Numbered from the stretch's first letter, positions 17,858 to 23,032 are shown. The stretch: DNA of 64,000 bases from Candidatus Sigynarchaeum calidifontis (GCA_030587475.2 JAUQYZ020000114.1:1-64000); one strand, 5' to 3'. A program made the numbers and translations. The notes: a model not told the origin generated them from the letters alone.

Positions 17858-19447
17858 TCAAGGCGTGAATGGCTTGTCGCAGTACACGCACGGGATCGAT
17901 ATCCCGATAACTTGCTTGAACTGGGCCTGGGGAAGGGCCATGTGCTGGGAACAATGCGGGCATTTGAAAACTCGGTTTACGGGCAATCCACACTCAGAAC
18001 AAGCATAAACGAGATCCGGGTCTGGATCGGGAATTTTATAGAATTTTCCGCAACCAGTGCAGACAAAGTTTGGTTCCTTCATGATCGAAGGTGCTTTTTC
18101 AAGTTTAGCTTCCGGTTCGACTTGGGGTTCAGCTTCCGGTTCTACTCGTGACTCCGGAGAAATTGATTCCTCGTTGGGGGCTGTTATATCAAAATTGGAT
18201 ATTTGTTCATCTATATACCCGGCATTATCTGCTTTGACCGCACCTTGTCCAGGATCAAGAGTTAGATCATCAGCATTAACTTGGACAGACCCTTGCCTTT
18301 CAAGTGAATCGAGTTCTGTTGCCGCAGGAATGTCTAAATTAAGGAGCGGGCGTTGATTTACTGGAGATTTAGCGATCGTGGATGGCCTGGTTCTCGTGTA
18401 TGCCTGGAGCTTTATTTCGGGATTGGGGTTCAAGGTCCCATCATCTGAAACCGTGACCGGCGCTTGCACCTTGGCAGCTTTTTCAAGTTCCTCGGAGGAA
18501 CTCTCTTCCTTCTCCTTCAATTTATCGACGATCTTGTCGAGCATATCTTCTGCAAACTTGACGTGTTCTTTTATTTCTTCCATCGCTGCATTTGAAAGAC
18601 CAGAAAAGGGGCGCGCAAGTTGCTTTTTATATTGCTGAACGGCTGAGCCAAGCATCTGTCGTGCTTCGGAATAATCCCCCGACTCGAAACACGCGGCACC
18701 ATAATAGAGCTGTGCGTCTGGATTGCTCGCCCCCTTTGAAAGTGCCTCCTGAAAGCACGTTTTTGCTTTTTCGATGTCGCCCCGCGCGAGCAGCTGGCGT
18801 CCTTGATCTATCCATTCTGCAGTACTGGAAGGTGTAGTAGGCCTATGCATTTGCGGAGTACCACGCGGCGATGCTGAAAAGGGTATAGAACCTGTCAACG
18901 GGTTGGAAATGCTCGCGGGCGATGATCGTGGCGTAGTGGGTGTTGCCGGCACGGTTGGCTTGGTGGGCGTCGCCGGCAATGCTGCTGGTTTTGGAGCCGG
19001 CGAAGGTTGCGCATCTACCGGCTTCGGGGAGGCGGGCGGGGTGGCAGACACTTGCTTGGAATGTTTCTCCTTCTCGGCGAGTTCGCGAAAGACATCACCG
19101 ATCTTCTTGTGGTGCTCAGCGATTGGATCGAGCGCGCTCGCGAGCTGGTTTTGCACGGATCTGTCGTTCACTTGTGCTATGAGCTCGGCATACTCGCGGG
19201 CGAGTACCGGGATCTTGTTGTAATAATCTATTCCTTGCACTCGAACGTCTGGATTGCTGGATTGAAAGCATTCTATCATCTTGAGATAGGTCTGCCGGAT
19301 CTCCTCGTACTTTGCCACGATCTTGTTCTTCAACTGGTTATTCTTGACAGCATTATATGCGGCAGCTCCCCCACGAAGCGCTTTAATGCCCAGCCCGATA
19401 AGATTGAAGACCACGGTTCCCACCTTTCTGCCAGAAACAAATATCAC
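17858..19447 (-). CDS. TPR protein with Pro/Ser/Thr-rich linker and C-terminal zinc ribbons (4 CxxC)
   Basis: TPRs (WIDQG.QLL.RGD.EKA..CFQEAL; AQLYYG..CFE.GDY.EA), low-complexity linkers, and CTGC/CSEC/CPHC/CVYC. Start uncertain. Confidence 0.7.
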   Translation of the reverse strand: MIFVSGRKVGTVVFNLIGLGIKALRGGAAAYNAVKNNQLKNKIVAKYEEIRQTYLKMIECFQSSNPDVRVQGIDYYNKIPVLAREYAELIAQVNDRSVQNQLASALDPIAEHHKKIGDVFRELAEKEKHSKQVSATPPASPKPVDAQPSPAPKPAALPATPTKPTVPATPTTPRSSPASISNPLTGSIPFSASPRGTPQMHRPTTPSSTAEWIDQGRQLLARGDIEKAKTCFQEALSKGASNPDAQLYYGAACFESGDYSEARQMLGSAVQQYKKQLARPFSGLSNAAMEEIKEHVKFAEDMLDKIVDKLKEKEESSSEELEKAAKVQAPVTVSDDGTLNPNPEIKLQAYTRTRPSTIAKSPVNQRPLLNLDIPAATELDSLERQGSVQVNADDLTLDPGQGAVKADNAGYIDEQISNFDITAPNEESISPESRVEPEAEPQVEPEAKLEKAPSIMKEPNFVCTGCGKFYKIPDPDPDLVYACSECGLPVNRVFKCPHCSQHMALPQAQFKQVIGISIPCVYCDKPFTP

Positions 19448-19646: not shown

Positions 19647-20672
19647 ATGGGTGGTTACGGGTCAGACTATGATATCTCGACCGATGATGCTGTCGTGAAA
19701 AAGTCCGCATCATCTTACAACATCGATAAGGGCCGAAAATACGAGGAACCCAAGAAGGTTTTCCCGTCCCCCGTTAACAAGGTGCTCATCACTAAAGCAA
19801 AGTTTCCCCTGGTCATCGCCGTGGACGTTACCGGGAGCATGAGAGAATTCCCCAAGATCATTTTCGAGAAGCTGTGCATCTTGTATAACGAGGTCATGCT
19901 TTTCCTCCCCGAGGCCCTCAAGGAAAGTTTCGAGATCTCCTTCGCAGCCATCGGCGACGCGTATTCCGACCAGGCGCCCGTCCAAGTGACCGATTTCGCG
20001 TCTGGCAAGGAACTCGACCAGAACATCAAGTCGCTCTATCCCGAGGGCGGCGGTGGTGGCCAAGCCAGGGAGACCTACGAGCTCATCGCCTATTTTTATG
20101 CCCGGCATTGCAATCTCGTCAATCCTCTAGACAAGCCTCGCCCGCTCTTCATCTTCGTCGGTGACGAGGGCTTCTACGCGAAGGTCAACAGGGAGCACGT
20201 TCGCCAGCATATTTCGACCGAGGATAAACTCACGAGCGATTTAATCAGCGAGGATGTCTTCAACGTTCTCAAGCAAAAGTTCAACGTTTATATTCTTCGT
20301 GTGGTTTACGGGAATCCCGACGACGAGAAGGAAATCGATGCGAAGTGGCGCAAGGTGCTCGGTGACAAGCATGTGATCATCATGCAAGATCCAAGGCGGA
20401 TCGTCGACACGATCATCGGCATCGTCGCGACCGTGGTCGATGGCTTCGATGCATTCAAGCAACGTATCGAAGTACGGCAGACTCCCGAGCAAGTAGCGCA
20501 AGTCTACTCGAGCCTTGATGGTATCGAGGACGAATCGACGCAGAAAAAATACGTGATGACCATTCAGGCACTCGAATGCCCGAAATGCGGCGCGAAGCTC
20601 AAGGACGTGCCGGATTTCGCGAAGCCCGTGAAATGCGAGGCATGCGGTTATCTCCTCGTGCGAATCACTTGA
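19647..20672 (+). CDS. vWA-domain protein (DxTxS MIDAS, GGGG loop) with C-terminal zinc ribbon
   Basis: DVTGSM, AIGDA, EGGGGG..ETYEL, FVGDE, then CPKC...CEAC. Begins MGGYGS. Confidence 0.8.
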   Translation: MGGYGSDYDISTDDAVVKKSASSYNIDKGRKYEEPKKVFPSPVNKVLITKAKFPLVIAVDVTGSMREFPKIIFEKLCILYNEVMLFLPEALKESFEISFAAIGDAYSDQAPVQVTDFASGKELDQNIKSLYPEGGGGGQARETYELIAYFYARHCNLVNPLDKPRPLFIFVGDEGFYAKVNREHVRQHISTEDKLTSDLISEDVFNVLKQKFNVYILRVVYGNPDDEKEIDAKWRKVLGDKHVIIMQDPRRIVDTIIGIVATVVDGFDAFKQRIEVRQTPEQVAQVYSSLDGIEDESTQKKYVMTIQALECPKCGAKLKDVPDFAKPVKCEACGYLLVRIT

Positions 20673-21289
20673 AGGTGGCCGGGCTCGTGCGGGTCATCCG
20701 ATCTCGCTCGTTGTTGGATGCGTGGAAGGAAGCCGTCCGCGTGATACTTTCCGAGGGACATGGAGGCACGGATGAAGGCCAACCCATGAGGGAGTTTTTG
20801 GACTTGTACCTCGATATCACCGATCCCGCTCCTGAACCAACGATTGCCCGGGTGAACCCGAAGATGGCCGCGTGGATGCACGCCAATTTCACCGAAAAAG
20901 CGCCCGTGCCCGAGCTCGGCAACGCGAAAAGCTATGCTACCCGCCTTTACGACTACCATGGCTTGGATCAAATCGCCTCGGTTGTAAAAAAACTACGGGC
21001 AAAACCGGAAACAAAGTCGGCAACCATCACGACCCTCATGCCAAATGATGACACGAGTTACGTGCCGTGCGTGAGTATGCTCGACTTTAAAAACCGCGAT
21101 GGCACGCTAATCCTCACGGTCACATGCCGCAGCCTTGATTTTGGCAAGAAAGCCGTTCACAACCTTGCAGAACTCGCGGCCATCGGCCAGGAAGTCAAGG
21201 CCGCGATCAAGGCTGCCAGGCTCGCCTTGCACGTGCACGCCATCTCGGCACACGTGTACCAAAACGACATCGACTCTTTACCCACGTGA
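20669..21289 (+). CDS. Thymidylate synthase-like protein (short, divergent)
   Basis: Y..RL, DQI..VV..L, VPC (catalytic Cys), RSLD, HNL and SAHVY. The TTG start overlaps the vWA stop (TTGA); alternative GTG at 20675. Confidence 0.75.
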   Translation: MKVAGLVRVIRSRSLLDAWKEAVRVILSEGHGGTDEGQPMREFLDLYLDITDPAPEPTIARVNPKMAAWMHANFTEKAPVPELGNAKSYATRLYDYHGLDQIASVVKKLRAKPETKSATITTLMPNDDTSYVPCVSMLDFKNRDGTLILTVTCRSLDFGKKAVHNLAELAAIGQEVKAAIKAARLALHVHAISAHVYQNDIDSLPT

Positions 21290-21295
21290 CCTGTC

Positions 21296-22084
21296 ATGAG
21301 CCCCATGAGCGAGGAATACTGGTTCAAGCAGCTTAAAATCAACGGTGCTGGCTACATGGATCGCGTCGACGATCTCAAGCGGATCCTCATCAACGCCCGC
21401 GGTTACGTGTTCGAAAAGCCCATCGGGGAGCACGTGGTCGTCTTGTTCTCGGGTGGCTTGGACTCGACGGCGCTCGTCGACATGGTTCTCAAGCAGTGGA
21501 AGTGCAAGGTGATCTTGATCTACATCCGCCGCGACGCGAGGAACCAGGTCTATGAGGAGGAGGCCGTCGATTTTTTTTCGAACTTCTACGCGAAGCGATA
21601 CCCCGGTCAAGTCATCGAGATTATCAAGCTCACCATCCAGATCCCCTGCCGCGTCAACCGCGAGTACCTCGACAAGAACCGGCAGCATGTCATGGGCCTG
21701 CCCATGCGAAATGCAATCATGTGGGCAAATGCAGTTACCCAGGCGGTGTACTTGTGCGAAAAGTACAACACGACCATCCGCACCGTCCTCGTCGGGTCGG
21801 TACGCGACGATAGTGACAGCCCCGAATCCGGTTACTTGTCCGTCCTGTCAATGTGCCTCCACGCGTGCATCTGCCTTGGCACGTGGAATTTCCAGGTCAA
21901 TGCGCCGCTCATGGACAACTCGTTCGTGGTCGGTGGCTATTTCAAGAAGGATCTCGTTAAATATTGCGTTGGTGAACGGATCCCCATCGAGAAGACGCGT
22001 TCGTGCTTTCTCGAAACGCGGGATCCGTGCGGCGAGTGCATCGCGTGCAAGAAGCGCGCGGCCGCGTTCGCGGAGGCGAAATAA
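21296..22084 (+). CDS. QueC-like PP-loop ATPase with C-terminal zinc site
   Basis: FSGGLDS PP-loop, PMRN, and TRSC-x(6)-PCGECIAC. Confidence 0.8.
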   Translation: MSPMSEEYWFKQLKINGAGYMDRVDDLKRILINARGYVFEKPIGEHVVVLFSGGLDSTALVDMVLKQWKCKVILIYIRRDARNQVYEEEAVDFFSNFYAKRYPGQVIEIIKLTIQIPCRVNREYLDKNRQHVMGLPMRNAIMWANAVTQAVYLCEKYNTTIRTVLVGSVRDDSDSPESGYLSVLSMCLHACICLGTWNFQVNAPLMDNSFVVGGYFKKDLVKYCVGERIPIEKTRSCFLETRDPCGECIACKKRAAAFAEAK

Positions 22085-23032
22085 ATGACCGAGATCATCG
22101 TAACAACAGCACCGGATGCGCCCTTTATCCCTGCCATCGCCCGGATCGATGCCGTGACAGGGTTCAGGTTCAACACGGGCTATTCCTACTTCAAGGGAAG
22201 CAAGGTCGAAGCCCTCCGTGCTTTCAAGGCCGCGACGGGTAACAAAACGGCGTGGATAGACCTTAAAACCCGCGAGCTCAAGCTTCTCGAAGCCACGGAA
22301 ATCAACGCTGGCAATCAAGTGCTCGAGATCAACCACAAGGTCAAGATCGACAGGTTACCCGCCGCCTTGTATTTCAACGAAGGCAAGAGAGCGGTCGAGA
22401 TCGACCAGGTAATCGACGGAAACAAGCTTCACGTGAAGATCCCGCCCGGCCGCAAGAATTTCAACATTTCTTTCGGGAAGGGCACGTCTTTCAACATGCC
22501 GGATGCAAAAATAACGGACGATTTTCTCACGGCACGTGATATCGAATTCGTGAAGGCTGCTCGCGAGCTGGGCATGCACGACTACTGCCTTTCCTACGTC
22601 GAGGCAGCATCGGATTTCGACGAGCTGCTTCGGCTCGACCCGGCCGCGCGCATCATCGCCAAGATCGAGTCGCCCCGCGGCTTGCAGTTCGTCGCGACCG
22701 GGTATCGCGACGTGAAGGCCAAGGTACGCCTGCTAGCTGCCCGCGGGGACATGTACGTGGAACTGGATCGCCCGCACGACATGCTCCATGCCTTGAAGGT
22801 CATCATCGACGCGGATCCCCGCGCCATCGGGGCGTCCCGGTTGCTCTTGTCGTTCCTCGAACCGGGGAGCATGCCCTCGTGCTCGGACATTTGTGACATC
22901 GGTTTCTTGTTCAAGCTCGGTTATAAATCCTTCTTGCTCGGCGACGAGCTTTGTGCCGACGAGAACGTGCTGAAATCAGCGATCGGCGTCATCCTTGCCA
23001 TCCAGGAGAGTTACCTTGCCGGACGCTTCTAA
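22085..23032 (+). CDS. Pyruvate-kinase-like barrel protein lacking the C-terminal regulatory domain
   Basis: RFN, IDLK.RE, LSYV, IAKIES..G, ARGDMYVE, ASRLLLS, PSCSD and LGDE align with PK motifs. Only 315 aa; the ATG directly follows the QueC-like stop. Confidence 0.75.
   Translation: MTEIIVTTAPDAPFIPAIARIDAVTGFRFNTGYSYFKGSKVEALRAFKAATGNKTAWIDLKTRELKLLEATEINAGNQVLEINHKVKIDRLPAALYFNEGKRAVEIDQVIDGNKLHVKIPPGRKNFNISFGKGTSFNMPDAKITDDFLTARDIEFVKAARELGMHDYCLSYVEAASDFDELLRLDPAARIIAKIESPRGLQFVATGYRDVKAKVRLLAARGDMYVELDRPHDMLHALKVIIDADPRAIGASRLLLSFLEPGSMPSCSDICDIGFLFKLGYKSFLLGDELCADENVLKSAIGVILAIQESYLAGRF

Follow-up and report, generated by a model that had tools for sequence, protein, structure and literature searches.

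We analysed a 64,000-nucleotide stretch of the genome of the Asgard archaeon Candidatus Sigynarchaeum calidifontis (GCA_030587475.2, JAUQYZ020000114.1:1-64000), referred to here as the window, in which four abutting, co-directional genes occupy positions 19647-23032 of the + strand. They encode, in this order, a von Willebrand factor A (vWA) protein, a thymidylate-synthase-like (ThyA-like) enzyme, a divergent QueC-family (QueC-like) protein and a pyruvate-kinase-like (PK-like) enzyme, and together they form one accessory cassette. A preliminary description of this region had proposed that the vWA protein exposes an N-terminal glycine as a possible substrate for nucleobase conjugation by the QueC-like protein. 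A Pfam scan of the cassette recognised the ThyA-like, QueC-like and PK-like products but not the vWA product, whose best homolog (95% identity) is annotated as Candidatus Sigynarchaeum springense. No description of the four-gene cassette or of the vWA/PK-like pair was found in the literature.

The first gene (19647..20672, +) encodes a 341-amino acid (aa) vWA-like adaptor, which, as judged from its translation, an AlphaFold2 model and Foldseek searches, consists of an N-terminal tail, a vWA domain of the metal ion-dependent adhesion site (MIDAS) type and a C-terminal zinc ribbon. Translation from the ATG at 19647 gives the N-terminus MGGYGSDYDIS, and both the M-G-G-Y-G-S start and its position agree with the preliminary description. 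The codons for MGGYGS (19647..19664, +) specify the proposed acceptor tip, in which Gly2 would become the first residue after removal of Met. The ATG is preceded by a GAGG sequence at a distance of about 12 nt and by an in-frame TGA at 6 nt, and this stop codon makes a longer form impossible. Since the next in-frame Met is M65, and a start there would delete the first strand and the MIDAS motif DVTGS, MGGYGS is the only N-terminus that keeps the vWA domain intact. The protein search found 465 vWA homologs. Among 67 homologs of the Asgard type, 56 begin with MGG[YF][GS]; in seven of the remaining 11 the start is called further upstream and [ML]GGYG is internal, two have GGYG behind a different start call and two appear to be truncated. 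This conservation at the protein level indicates that the tail is translated.

No Pfam or NCBIfam model matched the vWA protein, including Pfam VWA, VWA_2 and TerY_C. The AlphaFold2 model, based on a 36-homolog alignment, showed a vWA fold and a zinc ribbon with a predicted local distance difference test (pLDDT) value of 87. This value fell to 56 over residues 1-10 and to about 70 over residues 11-40, so the tail is predicted to be flexible. Foldseek matched the model to the vWA domains of integrin beta-I, TFIIH Ssl1, ArnB and NorD (E 2e-7 to 6e-6). The MIDAS motif DVTGS (residues 60-64; 19824..19838, +) is conserved across the family together with EGGGGG and GDEGFY, most residues of these motifs being invariant; the invariant positions in 36 diverse homologs were D60, V61, T62, G63, S64, M65, G103-D104-A105, E133-G134, G136-G137 and D173-E174. 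The zinc ribbon CPKC-x15-CEAC (20577..20645, +; C311-x2-C314-x15-C330-x2-C333) is kept in Asgard homologs, and the majority of other lineages have a basic tail in its place.

The third gene (21296..22084, +) encodes a 262-aa divergent ATPase of the QueC family, identified by a Pfam QueC match of 59.6 bits, which passes the family-level cut-off, by an AlphaFold2 model (pLDDT 92) and by its fold match. The protein contains the pyrophosphate-binding loop (PP-loop) SGGLDS (residues 52-57; 21449..21466, +), in which S52, G53, G54, D56 and S57 are invariant in the subfamily alignment, the motif PMRN (136-139) and a Cys4 zinc site, C237-x7-C245-x2-C248-x2-C251 (22004..22048, +), in the region that aligns to Cap9. 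Both the PP-loop and the zinc site are invariant across the subfamily. IYIRRDARN and DSPES stand at the positions of the canonical YxQxHxxE and YPDC (IRRDARN at 77-83, SPES at 175-178). The Tyr residues of these two canonical motifs are essential in E. coli QueC, and in canonical QueC (PF06508 cluster 1) Y/FxQx5E and YxDC constitute a signature for deazaguanine binding (PMC13329287). The Pfam match starts only at residue 47, which leaves an N-terminal extension of about 45 aa, modelled as two helices. The earlier account of retained SGGLDS, PxRN and zinc site and of substituted IRRDARN and SPES was therefore accurate, and the extension, given there as about 40 aa, is about 45 aa long.

The QueC-like protein scored 33.8 bits against TIGR00364 (cut-off 150) and 18.3 bits against the QatC model NF041925 (cut-off 280), and PADLOC matched it to QatC with an E of 0.005. 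Cap9 was its only PDB sequence match (E 8e-6) and also its top PDB fold match (9nto_B, E 4.6e-9, TM-score 0.75 on the target), just ahead of the QueC structures 2pg3 and 3bl5. The protein represents a separate subfamily of the QueC family, below the curated cut-offs of both QueC and QatC, with Cap9 as its best match in the PDB, a placement drawn from hidden Markov model (HMM) scores and structure search rather than from a phylogeny.

The second gene encodes a short enzyme resembling thymidylate synthase (TS) of the methanogen type (20669..21289, +; Pfam PF00303, E 1.3e-10). Its open reading frame opens at 20576, and the likely start is a TTG at 20669 with a 4-nt overlap with the vWA stop. It scored 112.7 bits against TIGR03283 over the full model length, below the cut-off of 174.55, and keeps the catalytic Pro-Cys, R-S-x-D, N (D in the relative from the candidate phyla radiation, CPR) and S-x-H-x-Y, which we take to be the corresponding residues in E. 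coli ThyA numbering. The fourth gene (22085..23032, +) starts at the base right after the QueC-like stop and encodes a 315-aa enzyme with the A and B domains of pyruvate kinase and without the C domain (Pfam PK barrel, E 8.4e-8; 36 bits against TIGR01064, cut-off 306). R28, N30, D59, K61, R63, K193, E195, R220-G221-D222 and E226 were invariant in 18 diverse PK-like members, and these catalytic positions align with the pyruvate kinase motifs in 5wrp.

All three cassette enzymes score below the curated equivalog cut-offs, and the same genome carries elsewhere a canonical QueC (234 bits), a second QueC copy (140 bits), a canonical pyruvate kinase on contig C154 (320 bits) and another TS homolog on contig C52. 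The cassette enzymes are extra copies and not the housekeeping enzymes. The cassette contains no queD, queE or tgt, and matches to the family of tRNA-guanine transglycosylase (TGT) in this genome were found only on other contigs, C181 and C209. Among 301 sampled genomes of the phylum, the QueC-like gene was present in four and the vWA gene in three (about 1%), on one contig wherever both occurred. Protein searches detected vWA in Loki-, Hel-, Hod-, Thor-, Frey-, Jord- and Sigyn-type bins. The presence in few genomes of the sample, yet in many Asgard-type bins, indicates that the cassette is a sporadic accessory element.

Tail classes and accessory genes of the vWA family

A pattern scan restricted to one genome per species gave 80 loci with vWA relatives, and these were scanned with custom HMMs. 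The PK-like gene adjoined vWA in 77 of the 80 loci and is therefore the constant partner of the family; the pairing spans archaea, bacteria and huge phages. A Ser/Thr kinase gene lay directly upstream of vWA in 42 loci, NadD-like and NadE-like genes were present in 45 and 40 loci, respectively, and the ThyA-like and QueC-like genes in only three.

When the vWA proteins were sorted into tail classes by their first residues, the N-terminal motif class was found to track the neighbouring accessory enzymes. ThyA-like and QueC-like genes accompanied the class with a short Gly/Ser tail beginning MG(G/W) in eight of eight loci, which consist of four Asgard loci (the window included) and of L015, L094, L099 and L106. 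L015 belongs to Aenigmatarchaeota, and the other three are unclassified metagenome contigs. The tails outside Asgard read MGGSAS in L015 (MGGSASPSGYDYS), MGWSAG in L094 (MGWSAGSGGYDYS) and MGGGSS in L099 (MGGGSSRSYDYS). L106 (P0094, MGGMSS, MGGMSSGYSGSYDW) was looked up after the rule relating tails to accessory genes had been set, and it fits the rule, with vWA, PK-like, Ham1, ThyA-like and QueC-like genes in a row. The initial MG is thus essentially invariant both in the Asgard orthologs and in every other vWA lineage that carries a QueC-like gene, as would be expected from the preliminary description. NadD-like and NadE-like genes were found in 45 and 40 of the 48 loci of the MYxW tail class, and a Ser/Thr kinase gene stood directly upstream in all 22 genome loci of the MSExxDY class. 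All tail classes share a G-Y-D-Y/F core, and the segment before this core differs. A maximum-likelihood tree of vWA (quick search) contained three clades that match the three tail and accessory classes. A 291-aa protein of L094 was considered as a vWA protein and rejected.

Of the 25 viral contigs with vWA in IMG/VR, most of them 50-485 kb long, 22 carried a triad of kinase, vWA and PK-like genes, nearly all with MSExxDY tails (L108-L132, also L003/L004 and L107). The kinase of the viral triad was often fused to DnaJ, and the tails were mostly of the MSE(S/T)ADY type. The triad looks like a huge-phage-borne form of the vWA/PK-like module.

Within the MYxW clade, the vWA/PK-like pair of two bacterial chromosomes (L044:7294-11279 and L086:7260-11361) lies between genes for a NadD-like protein and a glutamine-dependent NadE. 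At a nanoarchaeotal (DPANN) locus, L024:1460-9794, the pair follows genes for NrtR, a phosphoribosyltransferase, PncA, NadE, a NUDIX protein and a NadD/M-like protein. The vWA-linked NadE was a second copy in both complete bacterial chromosomes checked, which suggests a dedicated module of the nicotinamide adenine dinucleotide (NAD) type rather than the housekeeping pathway.

In Acidobacteriota, a gene for a PurA-like adenylosuccinate synthetase is located directly upstream of a vWA gene of the MGGGGGW type (L002:6704-7987, L104:47-784 and L105). Between two genomes, the vWA-linked copies share 53-68% identity, compared with only 40% identity to the second PurA of one of these genomes. As PurA couples an amine to a purine, this PurA-like enzyme could replace the QueC-like enzyme, or the arrangement could be plain conserved synteny. 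Two other Acidobacteriota proteins were considered and rejected: a 214-aa protein in the ThyA slot, taken as a diverged ThyA-like or QueC-like protein, is a degenerate vWA paralog (hhalign probability 99.7), and a 280-aa protein of the ThyA/QueC slot, considered in the same way, is unrelated to the QueC-like alignment. The bacterial-type operons at L002:9848-16942 and L094:3501-9147 extend past the vWA/PK-like pair with a 590-609-aa AAA+ ATPase of the dynein/MoxR type, and that of L002 additionally encodes another vWA paralog, in part degenerate, as well as a large protein with a weak VWA match. This layout recalls MoxR-vWA systems.

The QueC-like subfamily and known systems

A profile search of 1.8 billion representatives returned 153 QueC-like cluster representatives at E below 1e-30. 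One protein, P0159, is a fusion of PK-like and QueC-like domains; its gene lies in L099 beside the ThyA-like gene and the vWA gene with the MGGGSS tail, near NrdD, AAA_28 and DCD genes, and it ties the QueC-like enzyme to the constant partner of vWA. Other members (P0213, P0215, P0220, P0244 and P0193) carry a fused PqqD/RRE peptide-binding domain, S24 peptidase or Ham1. The RRE domain was present in three of three scanned members of about 410-465 aa; about 25 further representatives of 400-450 aa lay outside the scan. From these domain fusions, the subfamily has both peptide-tied and nucleotide-tied members. One RRE-fused member is encoded in a cluster for ribosomally synthesized and post-translationally modified peptides (RiPPs; L101:2400-6575) with YcaO, nitroreductase and methyltransferase genes and precursor-like open reading frames of 46-66 aa; judging from this gene content, it may be an undescribed RiPP tailoring enzyme. 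A scan of IMG/VR for the QueC-like subfamily detected no relatives, so this database yielded no virus-borne form of the QueC-linked cassette.

The closest QueC-like relatives outside vWA systems, with 34-41% identity, occur in Collierbacteria (CPR), where the gene again follows a ThyA-like gene. The locus L005:3972-10275 contains genes for Ham1, a QueC-like paralog, an aminotransferase, the ThyA-like and QueC-like proteins, an AAA_17 kinase, DCD, Ham1 and a nucleoside deoxyribosyltransferase. NUDIX and DHH genes are also present in the neighbourhood, and a TGT gene lies about 3 kb downstream of the cluster, which may encode a pathway to a modified nucleotide or nucleobase.

Conjugation of a nucleobase to a protein by QueC-family enzymes was shown only in 2025, for a type IV cyclic-oligonucleotide-based anti-phage signalling system (CBASS) in which Cap9 conjugates 7-carboxy-7-deazaguanine (CDG) to Gly2 of CdnD, a protein with the N-terminus MGGS (bioRxiv 10.1101/2025.04.06.647259). 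In Qat, the N-terminal motif MGTS of QatB is essential for defence (PMC13279940), and conjugation itself is still presumed. What the preliminary description took from the literature was accurate. Like the vWA tail, the CdnD tail MGGS(GGSFGSGFDPR) and the MGTS tail of QatB place a proven or presumed acceptor on an unstructured segment. The cassette resembles the Cap9/CdnD pair in that a PP-loop enzyme of the QueC fold, with SGGxDS and four Cys residues as zinc site, is encoded beside a protein with a Gly/Ser-rich MGG N-terminus, here an exposed Gly2 on a tail of low pLDDT. It differs in several respects. Cap9 keeps the canonical substrate motifs (Y/FxQ..E and YxDC), whereas the QueC-like protein has IRRDARN and SPES and thus lacks the canonical deazaguanine-binding signature; Cap9 is about 185 aa long, compared with about 262 aa, including the 45-aa N-terminal extension, for the QueC-like protein. 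The CBASS partner is a CD-NTase (CdnD) with an MGGS tip, whereas here a vWA/zinc-ribbon adaptor is found in an archaeal host, and ThyA-like and PK-like enzymes take the place of Cap10 (TGT) and Cap11, neither of which is encoded in the cassette.

QatC and QatB share with the cassette a remodelled QueC-family active site, an N-terminal extension and a flexible, MG-tipped partner tail that is essential in QatABCD (PMC13279940, PMC13376578, PMC13639016). However, the ATPase QatA, QatB and the TatD nuclease QatD are not encoded beside the cassette, and the zinc motif of the QueC-like protein is canonical and not the QatC variant. Canonical QueC (PMC13329287) is alike in fold, PP-loop, zinc site and a VPxRN motif comparable to PMRN, but it has YxQxHxxE and YPDC, and the QueC-like gene pairs with a ThyA-like gene and not with queD or queE. 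The TerY-type vWA proteins, which form triads with a kinase and a phosphatase, likewise combine a vWA domain with a C-terminal zinc-binding element, and one clade of the vWA family described here has a linked Ser/Thr kinase gene. TerY_C/vWA clusters were among the nearest named clusters of an ESM Atlas feature search (scores 0.78-0.79, to be taken as a lead only). Unlike in the TerY systems, the constant partner here is the PK-like protein and not a PP2C phosphatase, and the conserved N-terminal tail is specific to the vWA family. Clusters for pyrimidine-nucleotide modification in phages and CPR bacteria are based on a TS-family enzyme together with nucleotide kinases and enzymes of the DCD/dUTPase family, and in relatives of the cassette a ThyA-family enzyme with its catalytic Cys likewise adjoins nucleotide kinases, DCD and Ham1; the nucleotide enzymes in the window are only the ThyA-like, QueC-like and PK-like ones, locked to vWA, and there is no linked DNA-modification transferase.

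Possible tagging of Gly2 and competing explanations

By analogy with Cap9, we tentatively favour the explanation that the QueC-like enzyme covalently tags Gly2 of the vWA protein with a nucleobase-type compound, although we consider it somewhat less than an even prospect. The vWA protein would be an adaptor with a short, flexible, Gly/Ser/Tyr-rich tail that ends in Gly2 once the initiator Met has been removed. The QueC-like PP-loop enzyme would spend ATP to adenylate a carboxyl or oxo group of the compound, and the alpha-amine of Gly2 would attack in place of ammonia, as with Cap9 and CDG on CdnD. This compound is unlikely to be CDG, since other sequences stand in place of the substrate motifs YxQxHxxE and YPDC. 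The ThyA-like enzyme, with its retained catalytic Cys, and the PK-like phosphotransferase would make or further process the nucleotide moiety, and the tagged tail would then switch the vWA/PK-like module. Given the rarity of the cassette and its phage-borne relatives, the output may be a conflict or stress switch. The tagging explanation gains support from the covariation of tails with accessory genes and from the fusion of PK-like and QueC-like domains. The essentially invariant tip, its resemblance to the CdnD and QatB tails, the peptide-related fusions of the QueC-like subfamily, Cap9 as the best structural match, the housekeeping copies elsewhere in the genome and the rarity of the cassette also speak for it. 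Structure prediction of the QueC-like protein (with alignment) together with vWA residues 2-341, ATP and Zn gave 0.00 and 0.20 (mark 0.32), values that were not counted for or against binding.

Several observations weigh against tagging. The constant partner of vWA is the PK-like protein, not the QueC-like protein. The QueC-linked vWA forms constitute one clade, with an SH-like approximate likelihood-ratio test (SH-aLRT) value of 92 (the tool's mark being 95) and with L099 on a long branch, so the correlation between MG and QueC reflects about one evolutionary event and not eight. Tails that start with MY or MS are equally conserved, and conservation alone therefore does not point to alpha-amine chemistry. 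An Acidobacteriota vWA lineage with MGGGGGW (MGGGGGWDYDYS) keeps MG, and no QueC-like gene was found at the locus or elsewhere in two genomes; MGGSSYD forms of vWA also occur without it. A reader or transferase such as Cap10 (TGT) is absent from the cassette. A ThyA-like gene accompanies the QueC-like gene in every case, the ThyA-like and PK-like proteins hold full sets of catalytic residues like ordinary metabolic enzymes, and nucleotide genes are present in vWA-linked loci too (NrdD, DCD and AAA_28 in L099; Ham1 and PfkB in L106). In Collierbacteria, the ThyA-like/QueC-like pair sits in a nucleotide-metabolism cluster without a vWA or PK-like gene, which indicates that it can work on small molecules alone, and none of 18 translated neighbour proteins begins with MG. 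The earlier suggestion that vWA is a new class of N-terminally modified partner thus stands in part: the start codon, the conservation of MG, the tail/accessory covariation and the fusion speak for it, whereas the vWA-free CPR pair, the MG lineage without the QueC-like gene and the single evolutionary event do not.

The tagging explanation leads only narrowly over one in which the chemistry is confined to small molecules, a possibility we also take seriously. The three enzymes would provide a short route to a modified pyrimidine or non-canonical nucleotide, in which C5 chemistry would be followed by ATP-dependent amidation or amination and by a phosphoenolpyruvate-driven step from nucleoside diphosphate to triphosphate, and vWA would be a non-covalent scaffold, sensor or regulator whose tail docks on a partner. 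The nucleophilic Cys and pyrimidine-binding residues kept by the ThyA-like enzyme, together with the Collierbacteria clusters, make this purely metabolic route fully viable; the catalytic residues of the PK-like enzyme are also intact, and vWA-linked loci repeatedly contain Ham1, DCD, NrdD, nucleotide kinases and PfkB. The QueC-Ham1 fusion and the NAD-synthesis enzymes (NadD, NadE, NUDIX and PncA) beside the sister vWA clade again point to nucleotide metabolism. However, the route leaves unexplained why MGG is invariant in exactly the QueC-linked clade and why tail class tracks accessory class. Nor is it evident why such a route would require a MIDAS adaptor that carries a zinc ribbon, and the presence of the cassette in only about 1% of the sampled genomes and the peptide-linked, RRE-fused members of the QueC-like subfamily fit it poorly. 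The two explanations are not exclusive, as Cap9 also borrows its metabolite from a biosynthetic pathway.

An unlikely alternative to both is that the tail serves as a substrate or docking element for the PK-like protein or for a kinase encoded elsewhere, with Ser/Tyr phosphorylation as the switch and the QueC-like and ThyA-like enzymes supplying or consuming a sensed nucleotide. The adjacency of the PK-like gene, with its invariant catalytic residues, to vWA in 77 of 80 loci would suit this, as would the Ser/Thr kinase that immediately precedes vWA throughout the MSExxDY clade and in 22 of 25 viral contigs, and the richness of every tail class in Ser, Thr and Tyr around the G-Y-D-Y/F core. ArnB, a vWA protein regulated by phosphorylation, is among the structural matches of the vWA model. 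On the other hand, PK-fold enzymes like this one are not known to phosphorylate proteins, no Ser/Thr kinase gene is linked to vWA in the MG clade, and the invariant Gly2 is left unexplained. We regard it as very improbable that Gly2 is lipidated in a myristoylation-like manner, or processed, by a host enzyme outside the cassette, with the proximity of the QueC-like gene being coincidental. MGGYGS fits the PROSITE myristoylation pattern G-{EDRKHPFYW}-x2-[STAGCN]-{P}, but this pattern is very permissive. A 364-aa GNAT protein of the genome (G000:C205:71832-72926, L133:5833-6927) passes the Pfam cut-off for the N-domain of N-myristoyltransferase (NMT) with 33.5 bits, and none of 14 control prokaryote genomes had an NMT-family match; however, the same protein scores higher for Acetyltransf_9 (38.8 bits), and from these scores either an Eis-type acetyltransferase or an NMT-like enzyme is conceivable. 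A further point against lipidation is that QueC-linked vWA proteins with an MG tip are found beyond Asgard archaea as well, in L015 (Aenigmatarchaeota), L094, L099 and L106. There is equally little to recommend a role of the QueC-like protein as a second synthase of 7-cyano-7-deazaguanine (preQ0) for archaeosine or for 7-deazaguanine DNA modification. Although the Pfam QueC gathering score is passed and the PP-loop, PxRN and zinc site are kept, the 33.8 bits against TIGR00364 fall far below the cut-off, the motifs containing the essential Tyr residues are replaced, and the cassette is devoid of queD, queE and tgt. With the 234-bit canonical paralog elsewhere in the genome, the loss of motifs and the sub-threshold equivalog scores led us to reject a canonical preQ0 synthase.

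If Gly2 is tagged, the cassette would be a third system of nucleobase-protein conjugation, one that is archaeal, modifies another kind of acceptor (a MIDAS adaptor) and has its active site reshaped for another base, and the chemistry would be older and more versatile than bacterial anti-phage signalling. A broader and rather speculative idea, to which we give little weight, is that the vWA/PK-like pair is an undescribed modular switch of Asgard, DPANN, CPR, several bacterial phyla and huge phages, whose tail is covalently marked by an adjacent nucleotide-activating enzyme. The QueC-like enzyme with its ThyA-like helper would put a non-deazaguanine base, perhaps a pyrimidine derivative, on Gly2 in the MG clade; the PurA-like enzyme might couple the amine to a purine in Acidobacteriota; and the second NadD/NadE pair in the MYxW clade and the Ser/Thr kinase in phages would be the counterparts. 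With such a switch, the attachment of nucleobases to proteins would no longer be confined to two bacterial defence systems but would reach archaea and involve new chemistry. Should the idea of tagging turn out to be mistaken, the analysis still defines an uncharacterised family in which vWA is locked to a catalytically intact PK-like enzyme and is combined with three alternative accessory modules (ThyA-like and QueC-like; NadD and NadE; a Ser/Thr kinase in huge phages), each with its own tail motif. The match between tail and module offers an experimental handle on the coupling of nucleotide metabolism to a protein switch.

Genes flanking the cassette

The cassette is flanked by ordinary genes, which encode a GH2 glycosidase, a PHP-domain protein, a flavin adenine dinucleotide (FAD) oxidoreductase, a TPR/zinc-ribbon protein, an alkaline phosphatase and ether-lipid proteins. 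A defence island or mobile element was considered and rejected, as no defence or mobility genes were found among the neighbours in the window, where PADLOC gave only QueC-family matches. The divergently oriented gene at 17858-19447 (-) encodes a 529-aa protein that is probably unrelated to the cassette, since the Loki locus L001 has no counterpart beside its cassette. This protein has an N-terminal hydrophobic stretch, a Pro/Thr/Ser-rich linker, TPR repeats and several C-terminal zinc-ribbon motifs of the CxxC type.

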